A DNA stretch of 64,000 bases, from NCBI GenBank assembly GCA_963823065.1, contig CAWGJX010000004.1:1088139-1152138 (forward strand). The letters run 5' to 3'. Source of the DNA: an uncultured Bacteroidales bacterium. Lineage in GTDB: Bacteria > Bacteroidota > Bacteroidia > Bacteroidales > VadinHA17. The translations under genes and the position numbers were made by a program. Below, piece after piece: positions 32,571-61,918 of the stretch (the stretch's first letter is position 1; every line of letters starts with the position of its first letter). A model generated the notes under the pieces. That model searched no databases, was not told the DNA's origin, and worked only from the letters and a program-made list of their open reading frames with translations.

Positions 32571-33924
32571 TTAAATTTGCTTCTTAAATGTTATTTCGAA
32601 TCTGGTCCCTTCATTCTCAGCACTATATACTTCTAGTTTGCTTCCATGAAGCTCTATGATTTTGCTTACAAGAGAAAGACCGATTCCATACCCGGCTTTA
32701 AATCTGACATTCGAAGCCCTTTTAAATGGCAGATAAATGCTTTCCAATTCATCTGAAGGTATGCCTATTCCATTGTCGGATATGATGATCTTAATTTCTG
32801 TCTTCAATATTAAAAACTTGATTATCACATCATCATTTGAAAATTTACAGGCATTGTCGATTAAATTATTAAATGCTATTGTTAATAACCCTGAATTCCC
32901 TTTGATTAACAGATTATTTTCATTCTCAGGATACTGAATTTTTGGAATAATCCTGCGATTCTTATAACTGTTTTTAACATTGAGTATTGCATTATATACT
33001 ATTTCATCTATCCTGACAATTGTCAGTTAGAATAGTGTTTTGACCATTTATCTGTGCCAGTTCCAATAAACTATTCAATAATGTATTAAGTTTCTTAAGG
33101 TCGTTCATTAAGCCTGAAATATGTTTGATATAGGCTTCATTTGTTTGTTCACGACTTAATAAATAGTCGCTTTCCCCAATCATTACAGTCAGAGGAGTCC
33201 GTAATTCATGCGAGGCATTCGAGACAAAATCTTCCTGATTTTTAAATGCAATTTCAAGATTGCTCAGTAATTCATTAAATGTTATTGCCAACTGGTCTAT
33301 TTCATCCTTCCGGTTACCTTCGTTCAACCTGTTTCCAAGCCTGAGTGAATTGATATCCTTCACACTTCTTATTATCTGTGAGATGGGCTGAATGGCCTTT
33401 TTAGAGAAAAAATATGACAGAAGCACCGATAACCAAACACTGAAAAGTATGCTCCAGAGAAGAATTCCGCGGAGTTCTGATAGATTTTCACGACGGGTAT
33501 TGTCGAAAGCCATTACGAACACATAATATGTCTTGTTTTTATATGTATGCCGGTAGCGAACCCCATCTTTTTCTGCTATTGAGAAGAAATTTATAACTGT
33601 ACTTTTTGTATACTGTCGCATTACCCTGTCAGTAAGATACTGGATATTATTTCCATACACTAGTCTATACGCTGAATCGGTTAATGCAATCTCTTCCTTT
33701 TTCCAGGAAATCGTTGATTGATGGATTTTTTTTAATAATGACGAATCGACTTCAGCAACATTGATCAATAAAATAGCGGTGTTCTTCGCACCGTCATAAA
33801 GATCTTCCCTGAATTTGGCCCGTTGACTTGAATAGGAAAAGTAATAGACCAGTATTGAAAAAAACAATAAAATTACGGCAACAATAAGCGTGAATTGTAA
33901 TGATAATCTTGTTTTTATATTCAT
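32571..33924 (-). pseudogene. sensor histidine kinase (TM-HAMP-HisKA-HATPase), one frameshift near 33010-33030
   Basis: ORF 33004..33924 carries the H-box SHELRTPLT. The HATPase region (NLIDNACKFS...DNGIGIP...GYGIGLSLV) is open in another frame from about 33025 down to 32571. Total of 1354 nt. Confidence 0.85.
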
Positions 33925-35103: not shown

Positions 35104-36384
35104 ATGGTAACAATATTGATAATAGTATTTATAATTGGGTATGCCTTTATTGCCCTGGAGCATTCAATCAGTATAAATAAGGCAGCATCTGCTTTAATTA
35201 CCGGGGTGATATGCTGGGTGATCTATATCGCTTTTAAGGGTGATCAACAAATTGTGAATGAGCAATTGACTCAGCACCTTGGCGAACTCTCAGGTGTATT
35301 ATTTTTCCTGTTATGTGCAATGACAATTGTAGAACTTATTGACTCACATGATGGTTTCGACCTTATCACTGAAAAAATAAATCAGACTAACAAGAAAAAA
35401 CTGGTCTGGATCATCGGATTTATCACCTTCTTTCTGTCAGCCATTCTTGATAATCTTACGACAACAATTGTTATTATTTCATTGCTGCGAAAATTAGTCA
35501 AAGATGATAATGACAGATTATTTTTTGTCGGAACTGTTGTTATTGCAGCAAATGCAGGAGGGGCTTGGTCGCCAATTGGCGATGTTACAACGACTATGCT
35601 ATGGATTGGCGGACAGATAACCGCATTTAACATTGTGATTAGACTTATATTACCAAGCCTGTTCTGCCTGGTTATTCCACTTATATTTATTTCCTTAAAA
35701 ATGAAAGGGAATGTTGAGCGAAGCAAGAACATTAAAAATGACCAGACAAAGTTACTGCCAAAGAATGAACAAAAAATAATATTATACTCAGGTGTTTTAG
35801 TGCTGATTTTTGTTCCTGTATTTAAAACTCTCACAAATTTACCTCCATATATGGGAATATTGTTAGGTCTTGGTATTCTCTGGATAATTACCGAAAAACT
35901 GCATAGCTCAAAAGACGAGATTGACAGACGTAATTTATCACTTGTCCACGCACTCAGGAAAATTGATACTTCAACAATCCTGTTTTTTCTTGGCATTTTG
36001 ATTGCAATATCTGCCTTACAATCATCTGGTATCTTAACTTCTCTTGCAAGGTATATGGCGGCAAAGATTGGTAATGAGAGTGTTATCGTAATCTTTATTG
36101 GATTGGCTTCATCCGTTATTGATAATGTGCCATTAGTTGCAGCAGCCCAGGGAATGTATAGTTTAACACAGTATCCCCCCGACCACTTTTTCTGGGAATT
36201 CCTGGCTTATTGCGCGGGAACCGGGGGAAGTGCCTTAATAATTGGTTCAGCAGCCGGTGTTGCAGCAATGGGGATGGAAAAAATCAATTTTTTCTGGTAT
36301 ATACGCAAAATAAGCTGGCTCGCCCTGATCGGATTCTTTTCAGGTGCAGCTATTTATATTCTGCAGGATATAATAATGCACTGA
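35104..36384 (+). CDS. nhaD: NhaD-family Na+/H+ antiporter (ArsB/NhaD permease superfamily)
   Basis: 426-aa polytopic ORF with FFLSAILDNLTTTIV and SSVIDNVPLVAAAQGMY, typical of NhaD. Confidence 0.85.
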   Translation: MVTILIIVFIIGYAFIALEHSISINKAASALITGVICWVIYIAFKGDQQIVNEQLTQHLGELSGVLFFLLCAMTIVELIDSHDGFDLITEKINQTNKKKLVWIIGFITFFLSAILDNLTTTIVIISLLRKLVKDDNDRLFFVGTVVIAANAGGAWSPIGDVTTTMLWIGGQITAFNIVIRLILPSLFCLVIPLIFISLKMKGNVERSKNIKNDQTKLLPKNEQKIILYSGVLVLIFVPVFKTLTNLPPYMGILLGLGILWIITEKLHSSKDEIDRRNLSLVHALRKIDTSTILFFLGILIAISALQSSGILTSLARYMAAKIGNESVIVIFIGLASSVIDNVPLVAAAQGMYSLTQYPPDHFFWEFLAYCAGTGGSALIIGSAAGVAAMGMEKINFFWYIRKISWLALIGFFSGAAIYILQDIIMH

Positions 36385-36462
36385 AGCCGGAATTAATTGA
36401 GTCAGATCAAGCAGTCTTTCGGCGTGTGAGGGCTACCAGTTTCTCCTGTGCAGTAGTTTTTA

Positions 36463-37605
36463 TTAATTAATTCCTAATTTATTGCCTATTATTTCAACAA
36501 AACGCTTTGCAACAACACGGTAGTCAAAGTTTTTCACAACCCTTTCCCTGGCAGCTTTGCCCATTTTTTCACGTAATGCTGCATCCTTCATAAGAAGCAT
36601 TAAATACTTTCCGATATCATGCACATCGGCACGATAGTCTACTACCCGCGGTTCTTTAAACTCTATGCTATGGTGATTTTCAAATCCCGATTCATCACCG
36701 AGGATAACATGATCGACAACTATTTTCTGTGCTACTTTGGCGAGGAAAGCCGTTTCTCCATGTACGAGAGTATCAAGCATTCCCATTGCCTTAATACCGA
36801 TCACCGGTTTTCCGCAAGCTCCGGCTTCCACCTGAGGCATACCAAATCCTTCCAGCCGGGATGGGGCTGCATATATATCGCAGGCTCCTATAAGGTATGG
36901 CATAAATTTCCTTGAAATAATATTGGTAGCATAGGTGACATTCTTTTCTATCCCAAGATGTTCGGCCATATTGAGGTCGGCAATGTTTTGCTTTTGCGTC
37001 CGGGGCTGGGGCCACACTTTGCATATATATTTCCAGTCAGGAGCTTTTGTATCTATGATCGCCAGTGCCTGCATTACTTCCTGTGCACCTTTTGAAGCAG
37101 CATCTCCACCTACTGTGAGAATCATTATCTGATCGGGTGAAATGCCAAGCGATTCACGCACAGCTAAAATCTTGGGATCATCCTTACTGTGAGGAATAAA
37201 GGAACTGGTATCGCACCCTACTGGCAACACTTCAATTTAGTCGCCGTTAATACCGTCGCGTATATACATCTCCTTTACCCAATTAGAAGTCACCAGGATA
37301 AGCGGGAGGGCATTTAGAACCTCCTGGTAGTTTGCAATATACCCGTCTGCTACCAGCCACGGTACAGGCTGAACACCATAACGTTGCGGGTGCAGTACCA
37401 GTTGAGGAGTATGCCCCCAGTAACCTACACCGACGACCACATCTGGCTCAAACCATCTATAGTACCATTCCTTTTCCTGTGCTGATTCGAAATGCACAGC
37501 ATGTGCATCAACACCCATTTCAAGAAGCCCTTTGTAGAGAAGATCTCCCTGTGTCGCCAATCCTCCGGGTGATGGAGGATAATCATATAATAACAAAACT
37601 TTCAT
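36463..37605 (-). pseudogene. glycosyltransferase family 4 interrupted by a single in-frame TAA
   Basis: ORFs 37237..37605 and 36463..37230 are in the same frame. Read through, the sequence is ...IRDGINGD*IEVLPVGCDTSSFIP. The E-x7-E region is EGFGMPQVEAGACGKPV. The whole gene is 381 codons. Confidence 0.8.
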
Positions 37606-37618
37606 AATGCAATAATTT

Positions 37619-38278
37619 TCAAATTTTCAAATTCATGAGTTTATAAAGCCATTCTTTAGCTGTAACACGATCGTTAAATTTCCAGAATGATTCTGCTCTG
37701 GGTGTTGTTTCGGCTTCGAAGCCATTCTTTTCAAATCCGTAGGTTTCAGTGATTATCCGGTATTTTCGCAGCCATATCCGTTTCGTGAGTGTACGGTAAT
37801 GAGTTGCATTTTCCATAGCTACCGGATAGTGTTTTTTATTGTCGTCAGTGTAGGCAAAGGCCCATAATTCACTTGCCGAAATTTTGCCGGCATCCCAGAG
37901 TTTTATTACTGCTTGACCTGTTTCTTCATGCCTGCGATGCCTTGTATATTCTCCCGATGGACTATGAGTAATTACGAGGTCGAAATGTTTCGCAGGCAAT
38001 AAGTTAAGAATAACCTGTCCGATCTCATTTTCCTCAAGGGGTTTTTGTTCAGGGCCATCATCGAGGTCTCCCATGATACCTTCGGCTTTAAGAATTTTTA
38101 ATGCATTATAAAACCTTGCAGAACGGTCAATGTCGCTTCTCCTGCACAGACAGACAATAAAGCATTTCCATAACGGATGACTGAGTATTGTTCCACCGGT
38201 CCATAATGTTTCATCATCGGGATGTGCAACAATTACAGCAACAGTTTTTGAGTTGTTATCTGGAGTTCTTAAGTTCAT
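37619..38278 (-). CDS. LmbE/PIG-L-family N-acetylglucosaminyl deacetylase
   Basis: 219-aa ORF with the family signature VAVIVAHPDDETLWTGG and a downstream HRRH (HxxH) metal-ligand region. Confidence 0.85.
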   Translation of the reverse strand: MNLRTPDNNSKTVAVIVAHPDDETLWTGGTILSHPLWKCFIVCLCRRSDIDRSARFYNALKILKAEGIMGDLDDGPEQKPLEENEIGQVILNLLPAKHFDLVITHSPSGEYTRHRRHEETGQAVIKLWDAGKISASELWAFAYTDDNKKHYPVAMENATHYRTLTKRIWLRKYRIITETYGFEKNGFEAETTPRAESFWKFNDRVTAKEWLYKLMNLKI

Positions 38279-39728
38279 TCAGGAGTTCATTTAAATCGAT
38301 AGTAGCATAAGTTGAGGCATAGTCCGACATGGCATAAGGGAGAATCAGATTCCTATTGTGAATAATAGAGCCACACGAGTAAAGTACGTTTGGCACATAA
38401 CCTTCCCTTTCTTCACTGTTGGAAAATAGTAAAGGTGTCTTTAGTCTTCCAATTTCTTTTTCAGGATTATTCAGTTCATATAATGATGCTCCCAAAACAT
38501 ATTCCCTCATTGGACCTACACCATGGGTAATAATAAGCCAACCTTCTTCTGTCTCGATGGGCGAGCCGCAGTTGCCAACCTGTATCAGATCCCACGAATA
38601 TTTTGGTTTCTGAATAAGGGTGGCTTCACGCCAGATATTAATATTATCTGAAAAAGCTAAATAATTATTTATACCGTCTGTCCTGCAAATAATGGCATAT
38701 TTCCCGTTTATCTTTCTGGGAAACAAGGCTATACCTTTATTATGGGCGAGCTCTCCATGGATGGGAAGCCCCTTGAAATGATAAAAATCACTTGTTGACA
38801 GCAATTTTGGTAATACATACATTCCATCATAGGCAGTATAGGTTGCATAGTAGATAACTTCGCCATTTTCCTCAGTGAACTTAACAAAACGTGCATCTTC
38901 AATGCCGTTTTTTTCGGTATCGGAGATTGGGAAAATGACTCTCTCGGAAATAGCCGAGTCGAGTGAAAACTCAATTTCATAATGTGAAAGAGCCAGCCAA
39001 AACATTTGATTGATGATTAATTCTTTATTTGGTGTCAGCTGATGTGTTTTTCTTATTTCTTCAACCGCCCTTTTTAAATCACCGTAAGTAAAACTGTCTC
39101 CCAGTTTTTCCAATACAAAGAGGGGTGAAATCTTATTATCGAAATCACGCATTTCATCCAGCTTCTTAATAAATGATTTTTTTTTGTATATATGTCTTTT
39201 GATCCGTTCAGCTTCTGCGAGCATTGTACCTACCGGTTCAATAATCATATTATTATTTTTATCAATGATAGCTGAACGAAAAACAATGGATGAGATATGC
39301 CCTTCACCTGTTGCTCTGAAACTAATGATCACTCTTGTTTCATCAATGCCTGTTTCCGATTGATCAGGATCTTCCACGATTGACGGATTAAAAAAAGCTG
39401 CTGATTCAATTGAGTATTCCATTGTGAAATAGGAACCAATCAGCACTTTCCGTGAATGATTAATTTTGGATGGTTTAATCCCCATTTCACCGAAAATCTT
39501 AACCAGTTTATTAAAGTGCGTTTCAAATATCAGAGAAATATTTCTATGACGCCTGGAATAATTTCTCAGCACCTGGCTTAATGCAGTGAATACTTCATCA
39601 TCAGTCATAGCCATTACACCAAGAATAATATTTTTACTCCTTTCGAATGAGAAATTGCAGAATCGGGCAATTACCCTGCTGGGATCAGGCGAAAATCTGG
39701 TACCTTTTCTGGTTACTGCAACTTGCAT
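38256..39728 (-). CDS. GH130-like glycoside phosphorylase/hydrolase with an N-terminal extension of about 200 aa of unknown function
   Basis: 490-aa ORF. The C-terminal ~290 aa carry GIEDARFVKF, YYATYTAYDG, NKGIALFPRKINGKY, EEGWLIITHGVG and EGYVPNVLYSCG, a typical GH130/DUF377 pattern. The N-terminal region has no motif I recognise. Confidence 0.75.
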   Translation of the reverse strand: MQVAVTRKGTRFSPDPSRVIARFCNFSFERSKNIILGVMAMTDDEVFTALSQVLRNYSRRHRNISLIFETHFNKLVKIFGEMGIKPSKINHSRKVLIGSYFTMEYSIESAAFFNPSIVEDPDQSETGIDETRVIISFRATGEGHISSIVFRSAIIDKNNNMIIEPVGTMLAEAERIKRHIYKKKSFIKKLDEMRDFDNKISPLFVLEKLGDSFTYGDLKRAVEEIRKTHQLTPNKELIINQMFWLALSHYEIEFSLDSAISERVIFPISDTEKNGIEDARFVKFTEENGEVIYYATYTAYDGMYVLPKLLSTSDFYHFKGLPIHGELAHNKGIALFPRKINGKYAIICRTDGINNYLAFSDNINIWREATLIQKPKYSWDLIQVGNCGSPIETEEGWLIITHGVGPMREYVLGASLYELNNPEKEIGRLKTPLLFSNSEEREGYVPNVLYSCGSIIHNRNLILPYAMSDYASTYATIDLNELLNELKNSR

Positions 39729-39737
39729 GGCCTTTTC

Positions 39738-42158
39738 TTATTCATTTTTTTGAATAATTGCTGTTTTTATTGATTTCTTTTCAGGATGGACCAATATCTG
39801 ATCACTAAATATTTTATCCTGTTCATTATACTTATCAACCGTCAATCGTGCCATCAGGTAGCTTATAGTAGATTCTGCTCCCTGGTTGAGATTCACATGA
39901 GTTTCTTCCATACCGTCATAACAGCCGCCGGTACATGGGTTATAAACAATCTGATGCAGGCGGTTGTTTCCTAAAAACCAGTTGAATGCAGTTTCCATTT
40001 TTATCCGGTAGTCAGCATCATTGAAAACTTCGTAAAATTTGTTTAATGTCATAATCGTATAGGCAACATCAATGGGCTGTTCACCAAAACGGGCAGGTAT
40101 CCGGCCTCTCTGAAGCCAGCTCCTGTTGGATATTACTTCTATGCCGTTTTCGTTGAAAATTTTAGATAACAGGAAAGCAAATGATTCCAGGGCAATTTCC
40201 TTATAAATTGCTTCTCCTGTCAGCAGCCAGGCATATAGCATGGCCTCAGGCAATATGCTGTTTGCATATGTAAGATAACCTTCAAACCATTGCCATTCTT
40301 CATCAGACTCATGCCTGTACATCTGAACCAGTCTGTTGGCCAGCGTTTTTATAAGGTCAGGATTTTCAGGCGATTTTATGGCTCTCTGATACAAATACAA
40401 GCCTTTTATTGCAAAAGCCATTGCCCGGGTGGAATGTATCGTTTCAATGCCGGGAACAGTATTTTGAAAAACTGTAATGGCCTCAGCACATGTTGTTCCG
40501 GGAAGTAACTTCTTTTCCGAGATCAAATAACCCAGGGCCCAGATAGCCCTTCCATTTGAATCCTCTAAGTTTTCAGATTTATTTTGAGCAGTAAATTTAT
40601 TCTCAACATCTACATAATTTAAAAAGTCTCCGGAAGGTTGCTGACAAAATTTAATAAAACTGAGATATTTATTTATGTACAATACACTATTGGAATCACC
40701 TGTTAAAACGAAATGCATGCACATTGCTATCATTGATCTGGCATTATCGTCGAGAGTATAACCGGAACACAGATCGGGTTGATTGATTTTTGAAAACTGA
40801 ATAATTCCTGTTTCCGTAGTCATTTGTTTTAAATGATTCAGATTGATAGCAGGCATATTATATTGTATAGTAATCTTGTGTCTGGCTATTTTTTTGAACA
40901 GCATTGCGTGTTCTACGGCAGAATTTTCCCAGGCTGTGGAAACTATCTTCTGCAAGGTATTTATCCTGTAATTCATGAGTAATTCATTATCATTAAATAA
41001 CCTGAGAACACCAGCAGCCAATTGCTGTGAGTTGCCAAAATCAAAAATAATTCCTGTATCCTCTGTTAATACTTCTTTTGCATGAGGGATAGGAGTTGAA
41101 ATGATAGGACAGCCACAGCTCATTGCATATGCAAAAGTGCCACTTACAGCCTGGTTGGGGTCATTGCTGGTAAACAGATATATATCAGTAAGCTGCAGAT
41201 ATTCAAGTAATTCAGGCAAAGCCAAATAGCTATTAATGAATTTTACGTGCTGTGATAGATTATTTTTAATTACCAATTTCTCAAGACTTATCCGGTATTT
41301 CTCTCCTTCTTCCTTAAAAACTTCAGGATGTGTCTTGCCAAGCACTAGAAATAATGCATCGGGGTTCGTTTTAATGATCAGCGGTAATGCTTTAATTGTT
41401 GTTTCAATGCCCTTACCGGAGCTTAACAGTCCAAAAGTGGAAAGAACTTTCCTCCCTTTGAATCCATATTTACTTTTCAGGGATTCTTTGCTTAGATGTG
41501 GCACGAGATGCGTTCCATGAGCTATCACCGATAACTTATTTTTCGGCAAATCATAATCGTTCATCAATATCTCAGCCGAATTATGAGTCATAACAACTAT
41601 TGATTCACAGAATAATGCAATAGTTTTTATTTCAGTTTTCAACTTTTCATCAGGATGCGGAAGCACAGTATGGAAAACTATGACAACCGGTTTTGTAAGC
41701 GCTTTCATAAATTGCAGAAATGCAGGTTCCTGCTTACTGAAGAATCCAAACTCATGCTGGATCAGAACAATTGTTATCTGACTGTCTTTATTAATCTTCA
41801 TGGCCAGTGTTCTGTATCTGTCAGTCAATGAAGTCTTAAGCACATATTTTACCTCGCCGGTATATTCAAAATTCTCATCACCCGATTCCAGTGCGCAAAC
41901 TTTTATGGAAAAAGTATTGTTGAATTTATTATTCAGAGCTTTAATCAAATCGTTAGAATAGGTAGCTATGCCACATTCCCTGGGTGGATAGGAAGTAATA
42001 AATAATATTTCGACAGAATCACTTGATTTGTCTATCAGAGATTGCTGTTCACTCACCCTGCTATTCAGCCCGGGATATGTTGATTTTTCAAAGCTAAATG
42101 TACTTTCCCGATTAGAAATTGTCTCTTCGGTTCTGTTTAAAACTGTTCTGTTTTTCAT
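39738..42158 (-). CDS. GT4-type glycosyltransferase fused to a C-terminal helical domain of about 370 aa, possibly (alpha/alpha)6-like
   Basis: Intact 806-aa ORF. The GT-B part covers about residues 55-430 (ILFITSYPPRECGIATYSNDL). The C-terminal part is rich in W/Y-containing helical repeats (GRAIWALGYL, WQWFEGYLTYANSILPEAMLYAW, NQGAESTISYL). That fold assignment is inference. Confidence 0.7.
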   Translation of the reverse strand: MKNRTVLNRTEETISNRESTFSFEKSTYPGLNSRVSEQQSLIDKSSDSVEILFITSYPPRECGIATYSNDLIKALNNKFNNTFSIKVCALESGDENFEYTGEVKYVLKTSLTDRYRTLAMKINKDSQITIVLIQHEFGFFSKQEPAFLQFMKALTKPVVIVFHTVLPHPDEKLKTEIKTIALFCESIVVMTHNSAEILMNDYDLPKNKLSVIAHGTHLVPHLSKESLKSKYGFKGRKVLSTFGLLSSGKGIETTIKALPLIIKTNPDALFLVLGKTHPEVFKEEGEKYRISLEKLVIKNNLSQHVKFINSYLALPELLEYLQLTDIYLFTSNDPNQAVSGTFAYAMSCGCPIISTPIPHAKEVLTEDTGIIFDFGNSQQLAAGVLRLFNDNELLMNYRINTLQKIVSTAWENSAVEHAMLFKKIARHKITIQYNMPAINLNHLKQMTTETGIIQFSKINQPDLCSGYTLDDNARSMIAMCMHFVLTGDSNSVLYINKYLSFIKFCQQPSGDFLNYVDVENKFTAQNKSENLEDSNGRAIWALGYLISEKKLLPGTTCAEAITVFQNTVPGIETIHSTRAMAFAIKGLYLYQRAIKSPENPDLIKTLANRLVQMYRHESDEEWQWFEGYLTYANSILPEAMLYAWLLTGEAIYKEIALESFAFLLSKIFNENGIEVISNRSWLQRGRIPARFGEQPIDVAYTIMTLNKFYEVFNDADYRIKMETAFNWFLGNNRLHQIVYNPCTGGCYDGMEETHVNLNQGAESTISYLMARLTVDKYNEQDKIFSDQILVHPEKKSIKTAIIQKNE

Positions 42159-42516
42159 TTATCACTCACTGACTGTATTAATAATTCTTCCAATAATCCG
42201 GATAAACTGACTGATGCGCATGCAACATGTGAATAAGCTCAATCTGGAGACACAATTAAGATATACATAACAAAGATGTGTAACTAAAGATGCTTAAGTG
42301 TTACAGAACTTTGACAAAAAGTTATATTATTCACATATAGTTTTTCTCCCTGAAATCATTAAACATGTGAATATTGTAACTTTTTTTAGAAGTTATGTAA
42401 TACTCAACCTTATCCATGAGATTAACTTTAAACCTTCATATTTCGGATAAAAAAAGAGATAATATGAATCCTTCTTCGCTGCACAGTGGGGAAGACAACA
42501 GGTAAATGCAAAAAAA

Positions 42517-43080
42517 ATGGGACTTTCTCTGAGTATCAATAAAAAAGACAGCATTGAAATAGATACTAGCCTTAAAGGATTTCCGGATAATCTGACATCC
42601 AAAATCAAAGAATTACTGGATTCTAAAACTTCTGAAAATAAACTCGCAGCAAGGAGTAAACTTGTAAGTATGGGTAAATCTATTATCCCACAACTACATA
42701 AATTATTAGATACGAAGAATGGATTGCTTCGTATGGAAGTTGCGAAGGTTATTGAACTGATAGCAGATAGAAAGTCGATTCCTTTTTTAATTAATCTGCT
42801 CGATGATAAAGAATTTGAAATCAGATGGATTGCAGCTGAAGGTCTTGTTAGAATAGGAAGACGAAGCATTGTGCCACTGCTGATGGCAATCCGCGATGGA
42901 AAGAGCGCTTTAATATTTAATGAAGGAGCTCATCATGTCTTGTTAGGTGTGCTCAAAGAAAATGAAAAGAATACATTAAGGAGTTTACTGAAAAGTCTTG
43001 ATGATTCTCAGGAGTTAGGGGAAACTGCCCCCGTAGAGGCTTCAGAAGCTATAAAAAATGTATTTAAACGAAAAAATTAA
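42517..43080 (+). CDS. HEAT-repeat protein
   Basis: 187-aa ORF with repeated ...R..A...L..IGD..SIP.LI.LL.D.....R..AAEGL... units typical of PBS-lyase/HEAT-like repeats. Confidence 0.7.
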   Translation: MGLSLSINKKDSIEIDTSLKGFPDNLTSKIKELLDSKTSENKLAARSKLVSMGKSIIPQLHKLLDTKNGLLRMEVAKVIELIADRKSIPFLINLLDDKEFEIRWIAAEGLVRIGRRSIVPLLMAIRDGKSALIFNEGAHHVLLGVLKENEKNTLRSLLKSLDDSQELGETAPVEASEAIKNVFKRKN

Positions 43081-44946: not shown

Positions 44947-46266
44947 ATGAAAGTAAAACTTATTATATTTTTTTGCATCGTTTCTGGCGCGTTGAATGCT
45001 CAACGCGAACAATTACAATATTTTCGTCCAAATAATAAGTTGGGTGTAAATATTTTTGAGACTACGAAAAATGACACAATCCCTTTCAAAGGATTTGGTG
45101 TAAATGTAGGAGGTAATTTTACTCAGGATTTCCAGGCACTGAAACATCAAAATACTGCTGTACCTGTTTATGATGTTAATGGAGTAAACACCAATCAACT
45201 TATCTCACTTACCAACGGATTCAACCGTGCTATGGCTAATTTGAATATTGATGCCCAATTAGCCGATGGCATCAGGATGAATCTGACTATGTATTTATCT
45301 ACCCGGCATCACGAGGAAACATGGGTGAAAGGAGGATATATTCAATTTGATAAACTGCCTTTTCTTAAAAGTGATTTCATAAATAACATGATGAAAAGCT
45401 TTACCATTAAGATAGGAGATTATGAAATTGATTACGGGGATCAGCATTTTCAAAGAAGTGACGGAGGGAACGCAATTTACAATCCTTTTATAGAAAATTA
45501 TATTATGGATGAGTTTGCAACAGAAATTGGAGGCGAAATTTACTATCATCCTTTAAGCGGTTTAATTGCTATGATTGGAATTACTAATGGTGAGCTTAAT
45601 CCTACCGTTATTTCTTCTTCTGTAATCGACACTGCTACGGGCAAATTGAACAGATATGCTCCTGCATTGCATGGCAAGCTTGGATTCGACAAGCAGTTTA
45701 ATAATGATTTAAGAATTAGATTAACAGGCTCCTTTTATGTGGATAAAAGCTCTGCGGGTAATACATTATTTTTCGGGGACAGAACAGGTTCCCGCTATTT
45801 CTTTGTTATGGAGAACACCTCGGCTACCTCATCGGATAACGCGTGGTCAGGAAGATACAACCCAATGTTCAGCGAGCAGGTGACTACTTTTATGATAAAT
45901 CCATTCATTAAATATAAAGGTCTGGAGTTATCAGGAACTTATGAAAGTGCAAAAGGAAGAATGATTACTGAAGTAGACATGCGGAAAGCAAAACAGTATG
46001 CAATTGATCTTATTTACAGGTTCCCGAGGGAAACGGAAAATTTCTGGATTGGAGGTCGTTATAATTCTGTAAAGACTTCATTACCATTGTTTCCGGGTGA
46101 TATAACAATTAATCGTACGGCTGGTTCAATTGGCTGGTTTGTTACAAAAAATTTGATGCTGAAAGCAGAGTATGTCGACCAGCTTTATAGAAATTTTAAA
46201 TCCACTGATATCCGTTCTGGAGGAAAATTTGATGGTATTATGTTTGAAGCCTCTATCGGGTTTTGA
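44947..46266 (+). CDS. outer-membrane beta-barrel (porin-like) protein
   Basis: 439-aa ORF with a signal peptide, alternating beta-strand-like pattern and the C-terminal ...MFEASIGF aromatic terminus typical of OMPs. Confidence 0.65.
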   Translation: MKVKLIIFFCIVSGALNAQREQLQYFRPNNKLGVNIFETTKNDTIPFKGFGVNVGGNFTQDFQALKHQNTAVPVYDVNGVNTNQLISLTNGFNRAMANLNIDAQLADGIRMNLTMYLSTRHHEETWVKGGYIQFDKLPFLKSDFINNMMKSFTIKIGDYEIDYGDQHFQRSDGGNAIYNPFIENYIMDEFATEIGGEIYYHPLSGLIAMIGITNGELNPTVISSSVIDTATGKLNRYAPALHGKLGFDKQFNNDLRIRLTGSFYVDKSSAGNTLFFGDRTGSRYFFVMENTSATSSDNAWSGRYNPMFSEQVTTFMINPFIKYKGLELSGTYESAKGRMITEVDMRKAKQYAIDLIYRFPRETENFWIGGRYNSVKTSLPLFPGDITINRTAGSIGWFVTKNLMLKAEYVDQLYRNFKSTDIRSGGKFDGIMFEASIGF

Positions 46267-46284: not shown

Positions 46285-47928
46285 ATGGAAATAAGTGCAG
46301 ACGCAGGGAAACCTGCTAAACCATCTATCCTTGTTAATGTACCCAAACTAATCACAGCATATTTTGAAGAAGTTCCTGATCCTTTGGTGCCGGAACAACA
46401 GGTTCTGTTTGGAACCTCCGGACATCGCGGCTCATCCTTTAAGAATTCTTTTAACGAAAATCATATTCTTGCAATTACGCAGGCTATTTGTTTGTACCGC
46501 CAGCAAAAGAAGATAACCGGTCCGCTTTTTCTTGGAATGGATACTCATGCACTTTCTGTTCCGGCTTTTGCCACTTCACTTGAAGTTCTGGCTGCCAATG
46601 GTATTGAAGTTATGATTGCCGGAAAGGAGGAATATACTCCAACCCCGTTATTTCTCATGCTATTATCATATATAACAAAGGTCGCCGTGAAGGGCTTGCT
46701 GATGGTATAGTGATAACTCCTTCGCATAACCCGCCTCATGATGGAGGCTTCAAATATAATCCTCCCAATGGTGGTGGAGCAGAATCTTCTATCACGCAGT
46801 GGATTGAAAATAAAGCAAATGAATTTCTGAAAAATAATCTTCAGGGTGTAAGAAGACTTCCGTTTGATAAAGCTCTCAAAGCATCCACAACCCACAGGCA
46901 TGATTATTTAAATAATTACATATCAGATCTTTCCCGGGTTATTGATATGGATGTAATCCGAAATTCAAATATTAAGCTTGGGGTTGATCCGCTGGGTGGC
47001 GCAGGTGTTCATTACTGGGAACCTATTGCTGAACGCTATAAGTTAAACCTTACGGTTGTCAATAAAGCTGTGGATCCAACTTTCCGCTTTATGACGGTCG
47101 ACTGGGATGGCCAGATCCGCATGGATCCGTCTTCACCTTATGCAATGCAAAGTTTAATTAAATTAAAAGATCGATTTTGACATAGCATTTGCCTGCGATA
47201 CCGATCACGACAGACATGGGATCGTAACAAAAAGTCATGGACTTTTGCCTCCGAATCATTATCTCTCTGTCGCAATTAATTATTTATTCAGGAACAGACC
47301 CCTGTGGAACCAAAAGCTGGCTGTTGGTAAAACATTGGTAAGCAGTAAGATGATTGATAAAGTAGCTGCAGAGTTAGATCGGAGAATCTATGAGGTACCT
47401 GTCGGATTCAAATGGTTTGCAGATGGATTATATGATGGCTCGCTGGGCTTTGGAGGAGAAGAGAGTGCAGGAGCATCTTTCTTACGTTTTGATGGTACTG
47501 TATGGACAACCGATAAAGATGGAATTATCCTGGCTTTGCTATCAGCTGAAATTACTGCAAAAAATGGTCGTGACCCTGGTGATATTTATAGTGATCTTAC
47601 TAAAAAATTAGGCGATCCTGTTTATGACCGTATTGATGCACCTACAACTCCTGAGCAAAAGAAAATGTTAGCAAAGCTCTCTCCGGAACAGGTTAAATTT
47701 ACTGAACTGGCTGGTGAAAAGATAATAACATGTCTTACAAATGCCCCGGGTAATGGAGCTTCTATCGGAGGCTTAAAGGTAATTACGGATAATGGCTGGT
47801 TTGCAGCCCGGCCTTCCGGAACGGAAAATATATACAAGATCTATGCTGAGAGTTTTAAGGGAACAGATCATTTGCATAAAATAATTAAAGAGGCCCAGGA
47901 AATAGTCACTAAAGCTGTGACTCAGTAA
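46285..47928 (+). pseudogene. pgm: phosphoglucomutase (alpha-D-glucose-phosphate specific), two frameshifts
   Basis: ORFs 46285..46710, 46710..47180 and 47245..47928 occupy frames 1, 0 and 1. Motifs are TPSHNPPHDGGFKY, GVDPLGGAG and, after removing one T from a T-run near 47175, [11 protein letters not shown]. The 1644 nt equal 548 codons. Confidence 0.9.
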
Positions 47929-47959: not shown

Positions 47960-50508
47960 ATGAAGGAGATAAAAAAGCATAAAACAGGTCATAATAACGG
48001 TTTATCGGGTATTGAAGGTTTCGATTCACTTTCTGACTTTGCTCTTGATATGCGTTGTTCCTGGAATCATTCAGCAGATGAAATCTGGCATCAGCTCGAA
48101 CCCGACTTATGGGATTCCACGCATAATCCGTGGGTAGTACTGCAGACAGTATCAAAAGATAAGTTTAAAAAAATAATGTCCGATCCTGCTTTCCGGAAAA
48201 AAGTTGATGCTCTTATACTATCTAAGGAGGAGGATATAACCGGTCCGGCATGGTTTCAAAAAACTTTCCCGGAATCACCTCTGACGGCAGTAGCTTACTT
48301 CAGCATGGAATTTATGTTAAGTGAAGCACTTCCAATTTATTCCGGAGGACTGGGAAATGTTGCCGGCGATCAGCTAAAAACAGCCAGCGATCTGGGTGTA
48401 CCTGTAGTTGGTATAGGCTTACTGTATCAGCAAGGATACTTTCGGCAGGAAATTGACCACAATGGGAACAAGCAGGCCTTATATCCGTATAATGATCCGG
48501 GACAATTACCGGTCATTCCATTACGTGATGCAAATGGGGAATGGTTAAGATTGGAGATTGAGCTGCCCGGGTTATTCTGTATGGTTACGGACATGGCAGG
48601 TGCAGGTTGGGAGAATCAAACTTTATCTGTTAGATAGTAATGATGCGGCAAATTTCCCGATCCATCGCGGAATAACAAGTGAATTATATGGTGGAGGACC
48701 AGAACTTCGGCTTAAGCAGGAAATGGTGCTGGGAATAGGCGGATGGCGTCTGCTGAAGGCTCTTGGATATACATCCTGAAGTGTGTCATCTCAATGAAGG
48801 ACATGCTGCATTTGCAATTTTGGAACGTGCAGCTGATTTTATGGAGAAAACAGGTCAGTCCTTTGATATTGCTCTTGCTTCGACAAGACCCGGCAATCTT
48901 TTCACAACACATACTGCTGTTGCAGCAGGATTTGATCAGTTTCTCACCGAATCTTATTGATCAGTATCTGGGTGAATACGCTGAGAAGAAGCTTGGCATT
49001 TCACATACAGCAATTGCTGGCTCTGGGTCGTGCGAATCCATGGGATCAGTCAGAGAAATTCAACATGGCTTATCTGGCAATAAGAGGAAGTGGAGCAGTA
49101 AATGGAGTTAGTCGTCTTCACGGAGAGGTTAGCCGTCATATCTTTGAACCACTGTTCCCCAAATGGCCAACAAATGAAGTGCCGGTCGGGCATATAACAA
49201 ATGGAGTGCACATGCCAACATGGGACTCAAAAGAAGCAGATGACATCTGGACTGAATCTTGTGGCAAGGATCGTTGGCTCGGAATGAATAAGACACTTGA
49301 AAAGGATATCCATCGTGTTTCCGATGAAAAACTCTGGGAGATGCGTACAAAAGCAAACAAGTCACTTATTGAATTTGCCAGTGAATATTTTTCGAGGCAA
49401 TTGGACGGTTCAGGGCATAACCCGGATACTATTGAAAGAGCAAAGCATTTATTTGATCCGGATGTTTTAACAATTGGCTTTGCAAGACGTTTTGCAACCT
49501 ACAAAAGGCCGAATTTATTGTTGCATGATCCTCAACGTCTGCTAAGGCTGTTAACAAATGCTGAATTCCCGGTACAACTCATCATTTCAGGTAAGGCTCA
49601 TCCTGCTGATCAGGCAGGTCAGAATCTGATAAAGGAATGGATCAGTTTTATCCGGAAGAATGGTCTGCATCCTCCTGTAATATTTCTCAGCGACTACGAT
49701 ATGCATATTTCGGAAAATCTCGTTCAGGGTGTCGATGTCTGGATAAATACACCCCGCCGACCATGGGAGGCAAGCGGTACCAGTGGTATGAAGGTGCTTG
49801 TAAATGGAGGCATTAATCTTTCGGAACTTGACGGGTGGTGGGCTGAAGCCTATACTCCTGAAGTTGGCTGGGCACTTGGAGATGGAAAGGAACATGGTGA
49901 TGATCCGGCTATCGACGCCATTGAAGCGGAACAACTTTATAATATACTTGAACAACAGGTGGTACCTGAATTTTACAACCGTAATGAAAAAGGTATCTCT
50001 ACACGCTGGATATCGAGAATGAGGGAAAGCATGGCACGGCTCACACCCAGGTTCTCAGCTGACAGGACAGTAAGAGAATACACTGAGCAGCACTATCTGC
50101 CAGCATCAAAATCATTTCTGGAGCGCACCGCAGATAATGGTAAAATTGGAAAGCAAATAGCGGATAAACTGCAGAAACTTAATCAAAAATGGTATTCACT
50201 TCATTTTGGTGAAATAAAAGTTGGTAAAGTTGAAAATCAGTATCAAGTTCAATGTTCAGGTTTTTTTCAGTGACCTTGATCCTGATTTAGTTCAGGTAGA
50301 GCTATTTGCTAATGGAGAGAATGGGGCAAAACCAGAAATTATAAAGATGAAGAGGGAATCTAAAACTGAAGGTTCAACCAACACATATTATTATAATGCC
50401 CTGGCCTCTTCAGAACGCCCTGCATCTGATTATACACCCAGGGCACTGACTGAAATCGCCGGGGTTTCAGTTCCGCTTGAATCAAATCTGATTACCTGGC
50501 AACATTAA
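47960..50508 (+). pseudogene. glgP: alpha-glucan (glycogen/maltodextrin) phosphorylase, GT35, four frameshifts
   Basis: Five collinear ORFs (47960, 48558, 48763, 48957, 50221) occupy frames 2, 0, 1, 0 and 1. Motifs are YFSMEFML, HLNEGHAAF, VNGVSRLHG and the PLP-lysine context EASGTSGMKVLVNGG. Confidence 0.88.
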
Positions 50509-50654
50509 TTATTTTATCGCATTGTTGCTGTAATAGTAGCATGTGATAATGAACAGGGAATGATGAATGGCGAAGGAAGTTCAGGCGACTAAGATATTTG
50601 TCAACAATATGTTACAGTCATGCAAACAAGGCAGTGGGTAATCACAATAATATC

Positions 50655-51953
50655 ATGAACGTCAGGAATCTCATAGGTGATGCTGAACTTGAAAGACTTC
50701 AGAACGAAACTTTCAATTACTTTCTATATGAGACCAATCCCGAAAATGGATTGGTGATAGACAAGACTGCACACGACTGGCCTTCAAGTATTGCCGCTAC
50801 CGGTATGGCATTGGCAGTTTACCCGATAGCAGTTGAACATGGTTTCATCACTCGCGATACTGCCATTAAAAAAGTGATAACAACACTACGGTTCTTCTGG
50901 AACAGTCATCAGGGACCGGAACCTGATGCCACTGGCTACCGTGGTTTTTATTATCATTTCCTCGATATGCAGACCGGCCGGCGTTCATGGAAATGCGAAC
51001 TGTCTACTATTGATAGTGCAATTCTGTTTGCAGGCATTTTGACAGCAGGTGTTTACTTTGATGCAGATGATGTAATAGAGAAGGAAATCCGGAAAATTGC
51101 AGATGCACTTTTTAGACGGGCTGATTGGCAATGGGCTCAAAACAATGGTCCAACTGTTACACATGGATGGAAACCGGAAAGAGGATTTTTAAGATTCCGA
51201 TGGAAGGGCTATGATGAGGCATTAATACTATATATACTCGGTTTGGGCTCGCCCACATATCCACTGCAGGAGAATAGTTATACAGTGTGGACGTCAACCT
51301 ATGAGTGGATAAATAGTTATGGATATGAATATCTTTATGCCGGACCATTGTTCATACATCAGATGTCACACATCTGGGTAGATTTTCGAGGTATTCAGGA
51401 TGCCTACATGCACAACAAAGGCATCGATTATTTCGAAAATAGCCGGCGTGCAACCTATGTCCAACAGAGGTATGCGATTGAAAATCCAAATGGATTTTCA
51501 GGTTATAGCTGGAACTGTTGGGGAATAACCGCAAGTGATGGCCCCGGTCCTCGTACACTTAGTGTGAATGGTAAGAAGCACCGATACTTCGATTATAAGG
51601 GACGTGGCGTGCCGTATGGCCCTGACGACGGAACCATTGCGCCATGGGCTGTTATAGCCTCACTACCGTTCGCACCTGAGATTGTATTGCCCGCAATTGA
51701 CTATATGGAAAATGATGTCAAGTTGAAAGTGGGTAACCCATATGGCTTTAAAGCTACATTTAATCCATCTTACCCGCATAAATCCACAAATCCATATGGC
51801 TGGGTTTCTCCCTGGCATTATGGGATTAATCAGGGACCGATCATTGCTATGATTGAGAATTATAAAACAGGCTTTTTATGGAGACTGATGCGAAACTGTC
51901 CTTATATCATAAACGGTCTGCAACGAGCGGGTTTTGCAGGAGGTTGGTTGTGA
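50655..51953 (+). CDS. glucoamylase-like PF10091 / GH144-like (beta-1,2-glucanase family) protein, no signal peptide in the called ORF
   Basis: The track ORF 50598..51953 starts at TTG; the first ATG is at 50655. An (alpha/alpha)6-type pattern is present: SSIAATGMALAVY, GFYYHFLDMQTGRR and STIDSAILFAGIL. The family call is pattern-based. Confidence 0.6.
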   Translation: MNVRNLIGDAELERLQNETFNYFLYETNPENGLVIDKTAHDWPSSIAATGMALAVYPIAVEHGFITRDTAIKKVITTLRFFWNSHQGPEPDATGYRGFYYHFLDMQTGRRSWKCELSTIDSAILFAGILTAGVYFDADDVIEKEIRKIADALFRRADWQWAQNNGPTVTHGWKPERGFLRFRWKGYDEALILYILGLGSPTYPLQENSYTVWTSTYEWINSYGYEYLYAGPLFIHQMSHIWVDFRGIQDAYMHNKGIDYFENSRRATYVQQRYAIENPNGFSGYSWNCWGITASDGPGPRTLSVNGKKHRYFDYKGRGVPYGPDDGTIAPWAVIASLPFAPEIVLPAIDYMENDVKLKVGNPYGFKATFNPSYPHKSTNPYGWVSPWHYGINQGPIIAMIENYKTGFLWRLMRNCPYIINGLQRAGFAGGWL

Positions 51954-52063
51954 GAAAAATACTTCAATATCCGATGATAATCATATGCTTTAAAAAAACA
52001 TAAAAAGATAAACCAGGGTTCATGTGCATAAAGTATTAAAAGTAATATTAAGGAGGTGTAATT

Positions 52064-53499
52064 ATGACAGATACAGATAAAAAACAGCAATATGAGATTG
52101 GAATGATAGGCTTAGGCGTCATGGGGCGTAATCTTTTATTAAATATGGCAGATCACGGTTTCTCTGTGGCCGGTTATGACAAAGATTCGTCCAAGGTGGT
52201 GGCATTAAAACAGGAAGCAGATAAAAGAAATATTCATTGCACGGATAATCTTCAGGAGTTTATTTCAATCCTTCGTAAACCCCGTGCAATAATATTACTT
52301 GTTCCTGCAGGAGCACCCGTAGATTCAGTCATAAATGAATTGTTGGCCCATCTTCAGAAGGAAGATCTCATAATTGATTCAGGCAATTCGTATTTTAAAG
52401 ATACCAATCTGCGGACAGTCAGGTTAAAAGAAAAAGGAATACTTTATATGGGGATGGGGATATCAGGAGGAGAGGAAGGGGCCAGGCATGGCGCAAGTAT
52501 TATGCCCGGGGGACTGAAAGAAGCTTATGACAGGGTGAAACCTGTTCTTGAAGCTGTATGCAGCAAAAGTGAATGGAGAACCCTGTGTTACATATCTGGG
52601 ACCTTCGTCAGCAGGTCATTTTGTAAAGATGGTGCATAACGGAATTGAATATGGTGTGATGCAGCTTATTTCCGAGACTTACGCATTTATGAAACTGGTG
52701 CTCGGTTTTTCAGAGGATAAACTTCAAAGCATTTACAGCGAATGGAATAATGGAGAGCTTAATGGTTTCCTTATGGAAATTACAGGAAATATCTTTGGCA
52801 AGGAAGATGACAAAACAGGCAAACGAATGATTGATGAAATACTCGATGTAGCCCGGCAAAAAGGCACCGGGATGTGGACTTCACAAAGCGCCATGGAGTT
52901 GCAGGTACCTGTCCCGACAATTGATATCGCAGTTGCTATGCGCGACTTATCCGTATTTGAAGAACAGCGCGAATCAGCAGGCAAAATTTATAAGCACCCT
53001 GAAATAAACTTTAACAGGCGATCCTGAAAAGTTCGTTATACAACTGCGCAAAGCTCTTTACGTGTCAATGCTTACAACATATGCTCAGGGGTTTGCTTTG
53101 CTGGCAGCAGCATCAGATAAGTACGGATATCATCTCGATCCTGAAGCGATAGCAGGTATATGGAGGGGTGGTTGTATCATTCGTGCTGCCATACTGGAAG
53201 ACATTAAGGCAGCTTTTCATGCAAAACATGATTTGCTAAATTTATTGCTTGACCCTGATCTCTCTAAAAAGATCATGGAGAACCTGGAAGATCTTCGTCA
53301 GATCGTATGCCAGGCATGTACCATGGGTATTCCGGTTCCTGGTATTATGGCTTCTCTCGGGTATATTGACGCTTTTAGCAGTGCATGGTTGCCAGCCAAT
53401 CTAATTCAGGCACAACGCGACTATTTTGGCGCTCATACGTATGAACGCATTGATGAAAAAGGAACATATCACACTGAATGGCTAAAAGGATCAAAATGA
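52064..53499 (+). pseudogene. gnd: 6-phosphogluconate dehydrogenase (decarboxylating), two frameshifts
   Basis: ORFs 52064..52639, 52548..53027 and 53062..53499 occupy frames 2, 0 and 1. Motifs are IGMIGLGVMGRNL, GHFVKMVHNGIEYG and AQRDYFGAHTYER. A strong SD (AAGGAGGTG) sits 6 nt upstream of the ATG. Confidence 0.9.
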
Positions 53500-55019: not shown

Positions 55020-55636
55020 AAAAAACAATCCCGATTACAACATTATTTTTAGATATAGGCGGAGTAATACTAACAAATGGATGGGGTCATGAGTCACGCA
55101 GACTGGCTGCTGAAAAATTCAATTTGAATTTAATCGAATTGGAAGACAGGCACCATCTCACCTTCGTCACTTATGAAGAAGGAAAACTAACGCTTAAAGA
55201 ATATCTCAACAGGGTGGTATTTTATCAGAAGCGTTCATTTACACATGATCAGTTTAAGGAGTTTATGTTTGAACAATCGACTCCTTTCACAGAGATGATT
55301 GAATTTATACATAAGCTGAAAGAACAAAACTGTCTGAAAATCGCAGTAGTCAACAATGAAGCCCATGAATTGAATGAACACAGGATTAAGAAATTTAATT
55401 TGAATCAGTTCGTGGACTTTTACATTTCTTCATGTTTTGTACATTTTCGAAAACCAGATGCCGATATTTTCCGGATTGCGCTCGATATAGCTCAGGTGCC
55501 AGCCGAACAAGTTGTGTATATTGAAAATACGCAGATGTTCGTCGACGTTGCCCGGGATTTAGGTATTCGAAGTATTTTTCATACTGACTACAAATCCACA
55601 CGTTCGGAACTGTCTTTACTTGGATTAAAGATTTAG
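55016..55636 (+). CDS. HAD-superfamily hydrolase (subfamily IA-like)
   Basis: 206-aa ORF with N-terminal nucleophile motif [10 protein letters not shown]. Its start overlaps the zwf stop as ATGA. Confidence 0.75.
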
Positions 55637-55750
55637 AAGTTTGATAAAAACAAAGCTGGCATAAATAAACTTTCTGATTATCATCTACATAGAAAAGAAC
55701 TATTATCAGAGATTGTACATTGAAGCATGTTATGAATTTAGGAAAGAGAT

Positions 55751-58186: not shown

Positions 58187-58285
58187 GATTGTAATACAAA
58201 TAAAGAATTAAACCCGGGCGGACAGGCTGAGAATAGTGACAATCGGAAACGAAAGGAAAAACCAAATAAAATTAAAATTCATTAT

Positions 58286-59185: not shown

Positions 59186-59275
59186 ATCATGTCTGCCATT
59201 TGCATCATGCCTGGTTTGTATCAGGTAAAAAGAGGCGCACAAATAATGAATTAAGTCAAAAAAGAAAATGAATCA

Positions 59276-60658: not shown

Positions 60659-60693
60659 CGATACTTTACACACCTTTCTAAAGAGGATATAGA

Positions 60694-61902: not shown

Positions 61903-61918
61903 TGAAAGGAAAACAGCC

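Follow-up and report, generated by a model that had tools for sequence, protein, structure and literature searches.

In the 64,000-nucleotide stretch of contig CAWGJX010000004.1 analysed here (hereafter the window), from an uncultured Bacteroidales bacterium of the VadinHA17 lineage, four tightly packed minus-strand genes encode an 806-aa fusion of a family 4 glycosyltransferase (GT4) with a C-terminal (α/α)6 barrel, a 490-aa long-form member of glycoside hydrolase family 130 (GH130L), a 219-aa LmbE/PIG-L-type protein and a second GT4. Across related loci, the unit that recurs is the GT4-(α/α)6 fusion together with GH130L, often accompanied by a separate 335-aa GT4, whereas the LmbE-type gene and the second GT4 form a lineage-specific accessory module present in ~7% of loci. 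GH130L carries the residue signature of β-1,2-mannoside phosphorylases, and we tentatively suggest that the unit serves to make and recycle, in the cytoplasm and by soluble enzymes, a glycoside or short oligosaccharide that contains mannose, a reading to which we give slightly less than an even chance.

The GT4-barrel open reading frame (ORF) spans positions 39738..42158 of the window and is followed on the minus strand by those of GH130L (38256..39728), the LmbE-type protein (37619..38278) and the second GT4, whose frame of 380 codons (36463..37605) is interrupted by an in-frame stop. The junctions described in the initial annotation, a 9-nt gap, a 23-nt overlap and a 13-nt gap, agree with the ORF coordinates, and the 23-nt overlap of the LmbE gene with the gene upstream of it is also seen in the related locus L007. 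The family assigned to each of the four genes likewise stands, with matches to Pfam Glycos_transf_1, Glyco_hydro_130, PIG-L and Glycos_transf_1, respectively. The four are real genes rather than chance ORFs: each of the two large proteins has more than 7,700 homologues in the database (E ≤ 1e-5). A 358-nt intergenic region (42159..42516) separates the operon from a divergent HEAT-repeat gene that begins at 42517 and, from its position, presumably contains the promoter; a scan for sigma-70 promoters and terminators scored no better than shuffled sequence, with a sigma-70 model that does not represent Bacteroidota promoters.

GH130L matches PF04041 at residues 261–487 (E 1.5e-24, 87 bits against a cut-off of 26), and its best matches in the PDB are 9fj8, 7fip, 5b0p and Uhgb_MS. 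Its closest solved relatives, namely Teth514_1788, Teth514_1789, Lin0857 and Uhgb_MS, are all β-1,2-mannoside enzymes. An AlphaFold model built on an alignment of 53 diverse homologues (pLDDT 93.6) retrieves Teth514_1788 (9fj8) with Foldseek at E 2e-20, the top 35 matches are all GH130 enzymes, and the alignment covers ~390 columns against targets of ~300 residues (297 aa). The model thus predicts a complete five-bladed β-propeller of the GH130 type. The propeller begins at around residue 100, and the motif of its first blade, 'FNPS ... SFRATGEGHISS' (residues ~113–147), is also found in the short GH130s of related loci. The initial annotation had recognized a GH130 pattern in the C-terminal half, which holds, and had left the N-terminal ~200 aa unassigned. 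These are not a domain of their own, because residues ~101–160 constitute the first GH130 blade. The only real additions to the fold are residues ~1–100 and ~161–250.

The active site expected of a GH130 enzyme is present and conserved across the 53 homologues. The proton-donor Asp (D104 in UhgbMP, D137 in Uhgb_MS) corresponds to D278 (51 of 53 homologues), the phosphate-binding Arg/His pair (R168 and H231 in UhgbMP) to R349 (51 of 53) and H402 (52 of 53), and the R/E/K/D pattern of the +1 subsite to R138, E277, K331 and D469, each of which is found in at least 94% of the homologues. Residue criteria for β-1,2 specificity among glycoside phosphorylases (GP β-1,2) have been tabulated (PMC7660257, Table 2), and GH130L possesses every one of these residues. 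Residues R138 and N114 were placed by comparing motifs with the N-termini of canonical GH130s and from the length of the Foldseek alignment, while hhalign aligned the long and short GH130s over residues 241–486 only. Full-length relatives of GH130L reach ~34% identity, and 520 representatives (clusters at 50% identity) are retrieved at E ≤ 1e-30.

The N-terminal extension (residues ~1–100; 39429..39728, minus strand), as assigned by DSSP from the model, comprises a β-hairpin and five helices that are absent from canonical GH130s, and contains a conserved R60-H61 pair. The second addition is a helical insertion (residues ~161–250; 38979..39248, minus strand) which, on the basis of the model and the Foldseek alignments, occupies the position of the lid of subfamily GH130_4. 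It follows the +1-subsite Arg (R138) and precedes the catalytic E277-D278, with model helices at 183–248, whereas the equivalent Arg and ED motif of canonical short GH130s are separated by ~45 residues. From the topology of the model, both helical additions may contact the active site. Residues 1–260 match neither Pfam nor NCBIfam, even at E ≤ 1. In two related loci (L024, 5700-8777; L026, 10001-13070), two tandem GH130L paralogues of ~35% identity precede the GT4-barrel gene.

The 806-aa protein, which is identical to database entry P0271, combines two domains in an architecture that is maintained over the full length in more than 100 listed homologues. Its GT4 catalytic domain, of the GT-B type, spans residues ~50–425 (40884..42011, minus strand), with a match to Glycos_transf_1 at residues 225–401 (E 6.3e-19, 68.6 bits against a cut-off of 26.4) and a conserved N-terminal motif, YPPRECGIAT. 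Profile searches of the PDB match this domain to PimA, PimB', MshA, BshA and a sucrose-phosphate-synthase-like protein (E 1e-9 to 1e-13). The C-terminal ~370 aa had previously been described as a helical domain without a nameable motif; they are indeed helical, but modelling now assigns them to the (α/α)6 barrels (residues ~441–788; 39795..40838, minus strand; pLDDT 81.5, pTM 0.85). The isolated barrel finds no match in Pfam or NCBIfam, even at E ≤ 1. With Foldseek, the best match is YPO2471 of Yersinia pestis (7tem; E 2e-14, query TM-score 0.74), followed by epimerases and isomerases of the AGE family, GH9 exo-glucosaminidases and GH76 enzymes. YPO2471 is also the best match by sequence (19% identity; E 9e-9, or 7.5e-18 with a profile), and is a stand-alone, uncharacterised protein annotated as a 'putative exported protein'.

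Among 40 homologues, the invariant residues of the barrel include D, E, N, Q, R and W, with no invariant His, and lie in motifs such as GYxLDDNAR, EDSxGR, WxWFE, WFLGxN and NxNQGAES. Because no His is invariant in the family, AGE-type epimerase chemistry is unlikely, and the conservation pattern argues for a glycosidase-like site. Enzymes of the AGE superfamily, such as cellobiose 2-epimerase and mannose isomerase, partner GH130 in mannan catabolism by Bacteroides and Ruminococcus and thereby provide a precedent for an (α/α)6 enzyme working alongside GH130. Membership of the barrel in this superfamily was considered and rejected: the (α/α)6 fold is common to both (TM-score 0.6–0.67, identity 10–14%), but the catalytic His pair is not conserved.

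The pairing of the two large proteins was assessed in 81 species-level loci by ORF BLAST and clustering, the related loci being the best 80 of more than 600 matches in species-representative genomes. These best 80 are mostly from Bacteroidota (Bacteroidales, Prolixibacteraceae, Flavobacterium, Pedobacter, Mucilaginibacter, Chitinophaga, Dyadobacter, Pontibacter and Anaerophaga), with further representatives from Spirochaetota, Desulfobacterota and Ignavibacteria. A GT4-barrel protein is encoded within 10 kb of GH130L in 44 of the 81 loci, and in 26 of the 46 that have at least 5 kb of sequence on both sides, usually directly downstream of GH130L and converging on it. Within the same distance, the 335-aa GT4 is found in 22 loci, a short GH130 of the β-1,2 type in eight, a hydrolase of the GH100/GDE-like type in six, the 380-aa GT4 in six and the LmbE-like deacetylase in five. 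The loci closest to the window (L001–L003) have the gene order GH130(347), GT4-barrel, GH130L, LmbE, GT4(380), GH100-like, of which the first and last genes are missing from the window. The set of four genes proposed in the initial annotation is therefore not a conserved unit, since the LmbE-type gene and the second GT4 are confined to five or six loci, where they are accompanied by the GH100-like hydrolase that is absent here. Rather, the GT4-barrel protein and GH130L are predicted to be transcriptionally coupled and are kept as a unit across phyla.

A distant arrangement is seen in the metagenome locus L090 (312-7165), where genes for a GT4 (333 aa), a second GT4 (390 aa), a stand-alone barrel (359 aa) and a GH130L (496 aa) form one operon, with genes for a GerE-type response regulator and a histidine kinase after them. 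The 333-aa GT4 shares 51% identity with the 335-aa GT4 of Bacteroidota, the 390-aa GT4 corresponds to the GT4 half of the fusion and shares its YPPxxCG motif, and the barrel has its counterpart in the 359-aa protein (27% identity, E 3e-37). The fusion is thus split into two genes in this locus. We conclude that the core is an ancient four-function unit and that the barrel can function as a part in its own right.

Several of the related loci connect GH130L to signalling and to mannose phosphates. In five of the 81 loci, a response-regulator receiver domain is fused to the C-terminus of GH130L (Response_reg, E 1e-25 to 1e-29; L035 9920-11860, L036 9947-11866, L059 10001-11869, L060 2230-4122 and L075 10001-11851), and in L001 a PAS histidine kinase and a receiver protein are encoded directly upstream of the operon. 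We note that direct two-component control of an enzyme of the glycoside phosphorylase type is unusual. In addition, the 751-aa protein P0144 (L085 2717-4972) consists of an N-terminal HAD-IIB/PMM-like domain fused to GH130L, and a gene for a cupin of the mannose-6-phosphate-isomerase/GMP type (MannoseP_isomer) adjoins GH130L in L088. The sequence surrounding the distant representatives P0144 and P0252 is too short for their context to be read. Together, the HAD-IIB/PMM fusion, the MannoseP_isomer neighbour and the receiver fusions link GH130L to mannose-phosphate chemistry and to signal-dependent control, and we count the receiver fusions and the kinase and receiver of L001 in favour of a regulated module.

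The genes form one compact cytoplasmic set. No transmembrane segment or signal peptide is present in the six proteins examined; GH130L itself has a polar N-terminus and no signal peptide, and its maximum hydropathy over 19 residues is 0.98. The window contains no gene for a flippase, polymerase or chain-length regulator within ~15 kb, in agreement with the initial annotation. Among 129 proteins encoded directly beside the module in the 81 loci and classified with Pfam, the commonest families (receiver, HATPase, HisKA and Por_Secre_tail) account for four proteins each, and the 25 most frequent include no family of flippases, polymerases, capsule or O-antigen proteins, SusC/D or sugar importers. 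The cluster thus lies outside capsule, O-antigen and cell-wall loci, and both the solubility of the proteins and the lack of export or import partners count in favour of a cytoplasmic module.

The surroundings of the operon in the window are as annotated previously, with an OtsA-OtsB fusion, three MscS genes, a Na+/H+ exchanger, an NhaD-like transporter, a two-component system, Usp genes, glycogen genes and LEA_2. The significance that the initial annotation had attached to this osmostress neighbourhood does not survive comparison, since otsAB, MscS and NhaD are not conserved in related loci. A conserved association of the module with osmostress genes was accordingly rejected, the flanks of related loci being heterogeneous, with scattered stress genes (Hsp20, CsbD, ECF sigma, Ku and peroxiredoxin) and two-component genes. 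Neither the four-gene composition nor the osmostress setting is a conserved feature.

We suggest that the module operates in the following manner. One or both GT4 enzymes would use nucleotide sugars to form an α-linked glycoside on a small cytoplasmic acceptor, to which GH130L would reversibly add, or from which it would remove, β-1,2-linked mannose by means of mannose-1-phosphate and phosphate, or possibly GDP-mannose. The size of the glycoside pool would then follow the phosphate and energy status of the cell and, in some lineages, two-component signalling through the receiver-domain fusions, while the barrel domain may trim or hydrolyse the product. In the lineage of the window, the LmbE-type deacetylase and the second GT4 could add an accessory branch that converts N-acetylhexosamine (HexNAc) to hexosamine (HexN); in this particular genome the branch would be inactive, unless the stop codon in the second GT4 is an assembly error. 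The initial annotation had also inferred a small glycoside rather than a polymer, and a small product is weakly favoured by the large lid and the HAD-IIB fusion.

The LmbE-type protein and the second GT4 warrant separate consideration. The former (37619..38278, minus strand) is a divergent member of the LmbE/PIG-L-type family of metal-dependent de-N-acetylases (PF02585, 35.8 bits against a gathering cut-off of 28.2), and the metal-binding H-P-D-D...H-x-x-H motifs noted earlier are present: H19-P-D-D-E23, H105, H114 and H117 do not vary among six orthologues. No significant match to a solved structure was obtained, with sequence and profile searches of the PDB yielding spurious WD40 hits only. 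The second GT4 matches Glycos_transf_1 (1.5e-21, 77.1 bits against a cut-off of 26.4) and, by profile, PimA, MshA and BshA in the PDB. It is the most conserved of the four genes, with ~90% identity to its counterpart in L001 compared with 75–88% for the others, and the GC content over it and the LmbE gene (36001-38000) is 0.434, compared with 0.33–0.38 in the flanks.

The second GT4 had been taken as an intact gene, but it contains an in-frame TAA at codon 123 (37237..37239) that was overlooked in the initial annotation and divides it into ORFs of 122 and 255 aa. In the Logan metagenome contig L004, which encodes identical versions of the first three proteins, near-identical DNA carries TTA (Leu) in place of TAA. 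Intact 380-aa orthologues with 64–90% identity are present in L001, L007, L020, L021 and L041, and orthologues have L, K, I or E at this codon. Because the orthologues carry a sense codon and the sequence after the stop is undecayed, the TAA either arose very recently by nonsense mutation or is a base error. Programmed recoding was rejected, as the near-identical strain simply carries TTA. Broken genes nearby bear on this choice: PGM/PMM (46285-47928) is spread over three ORFs, with a frameshift at the PGM junction, the α-glucan phosphorylase gene (47960-50273) is in at least two pieces, 6-phosphogluconate dehydrogenase (52064-53499) is split, and a histidine kinase (33004-33924) has HAMP and HisKA domains without HATPase_c. 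An error-prone assembly or ongoing gene decay could each account for all of these broken genes.

The closest known system is the β-1,2-mannoside phosphorylase cluster of Thermoanaerobacter sp. X-514. Its enzymes Teth514_1788 and Teth514_1789 (PDB 9fj8 and 7fip) are cytoplasmic and have the same catalytic, phosphate-binding and +1 residues as GH130L, with ~22–30% identity over the C-terminal half, and the cluster also holds a GT4 glycosyltransferase and genes for mannose-1-phosphate metabolism (PMC4264767). However, the Teth514 enzymes are only ~300 aa long and lack both the N-terminal extension and the lid insert, and there is neither an (α/α)6 domain nor an LmbE protein in the cluster. With the GH130_4 enzymes Uhgb_MS and Lin0857, which act both as phosphorylases and as GDP-Man transferases (PMC12814180), GH130L shares the E-D motif, K184, R202, the His and an insertion that follows the +1 Arg and precedes the catalytic ED. 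In GH130_4 this insertion is a 48-residue lid loop that caps the active site and limits products to a degree of polymerization (DP) of 3 (PMC12814180), whereas GH130L has a helical insert of ~90 residues together with the helical N-terminal extension of ~100 aa, and the equivalent of Uhgb_MS R242 is a Gln.

Two further comparisons concern the association of a glycosyltransferase with other enzymes. Fusions of GH130 with GT81 are recorded in CAZy (PMC7660257). As in the TPS/TPP, SPS/SPP and GpgS/GpgP systems, a soluble glycosyltransferase is here fused or linked to a domain of the hydrolase type, and the single HAD-IIB-GH130L fusion and the GH100/GH63-like hydrolase of sister operons add to the likeness with such two-step compatible-solute pathways, although the core contains no phosphatase and the stress-gene neighbourhood is not conserved. 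A compatible solute is a plausible candidate for the product. No study of the GH130L subfamily, the GT4-barrel fusion, YPO2471 or this cluster was found in the searchable literature, nor any characterised pathway with this gene composition, as had been stated at the outset.

A number of observations weigh against the proposed glycoside module. Neither the sequence nor the solved relatives reveal the donor sugar of either GT4, and the barrel has no characterised relative. The position of Uhgb_MS R242, which contacts phosphate or the nucleotide phosphate, is occupied by Q383 in GH130L, and by Gln in 41, Lys in seven and Arg in one of the 53 homologues. The Gln may indicate that phosphorolysis is weak and that the enzyme is mainly a transferase or has another specificity; in the HAD-IIB fusion P0144, the equivalent residue is Arg, not Gln. 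Moreover, GH130L scores 135.9 with the NCBIfam model BtaManbiosPhlase (cut-off 550) and 123.8 with BManbPhaseBMBP (cut-off 450), values so far beneath the equivalog cut-offs that GH130L represents a distinct, uncharacterised GH130 subfamily rather than an equivalog. Finally, in 37 of the 81 loci no GT4-barrel gene is located within 10 kb, and the set of loci, being the best 80 of more than 600 matches, is biased towards Bacteroidota.

Of the alternatives to the proposed module, a mannogen-like reserve fares best. Here an intracellular β-1,2-mannan would be made and phosphorolysed as a carbon reserve or stress rheostat, with the GT4 making the primer. The mannosyltransferase/phosphorylases (MTPs; GT108) of Leishmania were acquired from bacteria and use β-1,2-mannosyl chemistry for the cytoplasmic cycling of a soluble carbohydrate, mannogen (PMC10913872). 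These have the same propeller fold as GH130L but no GT4 or barrel partner, and no GT108/MTP match to GH130L was found among the PDB sequence hits, which are GH130 entries only, or in the Foldseek top 50. Mannogen cycling is the closest functional analogy and not a sequence relative. Teth514_1788, the closest structural relative of GH130L, produces long β-1,2-oligomannans, and characterised β-1,2 GH130 phosphorylases also accept GDP-Man (PMC12814180). Furthermore, many related loci have a second, short GH130 of the β-1,2 type, reminiscent of the long- and short-chain pair in Thermoanaerobacter, and the receiver fusions would suit a regulated store. The helical insert, however, is situated where the GH130_4 lid restricts products to DP ≤ 3, which argues for a small acceptor, no β-1,2-mannan from these bacteria is described in the searchable literature, and the window already carries glycogen genes. 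We consider such a reserve possible, but doubtful.

Catabolic salvage, in which the GH130s degrade imported β-mannosides (yeast mannan side chains, N-glycan cores or β-1,2-mannooligosaccharides) to Man-1-P and the GT4s are mere neighbours, corresponds to the established role of most characterised GH130s (PMC7660257, PMC4264767), and the Thermoanaerobacter cluster, with its ABC importer and GH5, is such a salvage locus (PMC4264767). The neighbours linked to mannose phosphate would be compatible with it. However, the surroundings of the module show no recurrent sugar importer of the SusC/SusD, ABC or MFS type and no recurrent secreted glycosidase, the GT4-barrel gene is tightly linked to it, by an overlap or a few bases, in the window, L001 and L090, and receiver fusions would be unusual for a simple catabolic enzyme. 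We consider a salvage function unlikely.

It is less probable still that the module makes an envelope glycoconjugate, that is, the head group of a glycolipid, a lipoglycan or a protein glycan assembled at the cytoplasmic face of the membrane and exported by the products of genes elsewhere. GT4 and LmbE enzymes act on GlcNAc-PI in the synthesis of GPI anchors, and the nearest solved relatives include GT4 enzymes such as PimA and PimB'. Against this, the six proteins contain no membrane segment, flippase, polymerase, acyltransferase and export genes are absent from the window and do not recur in the 81 loci, and we know of no phosphorylase-type GH130 chemistry in envelope biosynthesis.

The least credible alternative, which we regard as very improbable, is a pathway to a low-molecular-weight thiol or glucosamine (GlcN) cofactor, with the second GT4 and the LmbE protein in the roles of MshA/MshB or BshA/BshB. 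The pairing of families, the LmbE metal motifs and weak NCBIfam hits to BshA (43.7 against a cut-off of 273.7), MshA (60.8 against 462.5) and BshB2 (26.8 against 195) speak for it, but the analogy drawn in the initial annotation fails: all these scores are far under the equivalog cut-offs, the window has no BshC or MshC ligase, the second GT4 is broken here, and the pair is accessory (~7% of loci) and always found with GH130L and the GH100-like hydrolase. Domains of BshC, the bacillithiol ligase, do lie beside the module in two of the 129 flanking proteins of related loci; these probably represent lineage-specific synteny and not a functional link.

Other features of the window lie outside the operon. 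The interval from the Usp genes to the broken PGM gene contains a 439-aa ORF (44947-46266) that has a hydrophobic N-terminus and no Pfam match at E ≤ 0.001, and may encode an outer-membrane or secreted protein. Downstream, a block of sugar metabolism (50598-62689) contains a PF10091 'Glycoamylase', glucose-6-phosphate dehydrogenase (G6PD), the split 6-phosphogluconate dehydrogenase (6PGD), a HAD hydrolase and an 811-aa GH15 glucodextranase-like protein, as well as LEA_2, an MFS sugar transporter, acetate kinase and a PRC-barrel protein. ORFs antisense to the NhaD-like gene (35382-35996, minus strand, 204 aa) and to the HEAT-repeat gene (42393-42869, minus strand, 158 aa) are most likely shadow ORFs, not genes.

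What is new here is the lid architecture of a GH130 subfamily, together with a GT4-(α/α)6 fusion and an unassigned pathway; the system is not new as a category. The GH130L subfamily is widespread, with more than 600 matches in species-representative genomes, and strongly conserved. The barrel domain would offer a first functional handle on the structural family of YPO2471, and the carriers of the module include culturable Flavobacterium, Pedobacter, Mucilaginibacter, Chitinophaga and Anaerophaga, which opens the question to direct experiment. More speculatively, and with low confidence, we envisage a signal-regulated intracellular β-1,2-mannoside cycle in free-living Bacteroidota and several other phyla, a bacterial counterpart of Leishmania mannogen, in which the GT4-(α/α)6 protein would serve as primer synthase and trimmer and the lid-extended GH130 would switch between synthesis and phosphorolysis, driven in some lineages by its fused receiver, to provide a stress protectant or carbon rheostat. 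Despite biochemical characterisation of the GH130 β-1,2-mannoside phosphorylases, their natural substrates are not known in most bacteria, and the Thermoanaerobacter study itself remarks that no source of β-1,2-oligomannan is known for that organism (PMC4264767). For the family described here, the GT4-(α/α)6 partner, the occasional receiver and the lack of import machinery point to a glycoside or oligosaccharide that is endogenous and regulated.

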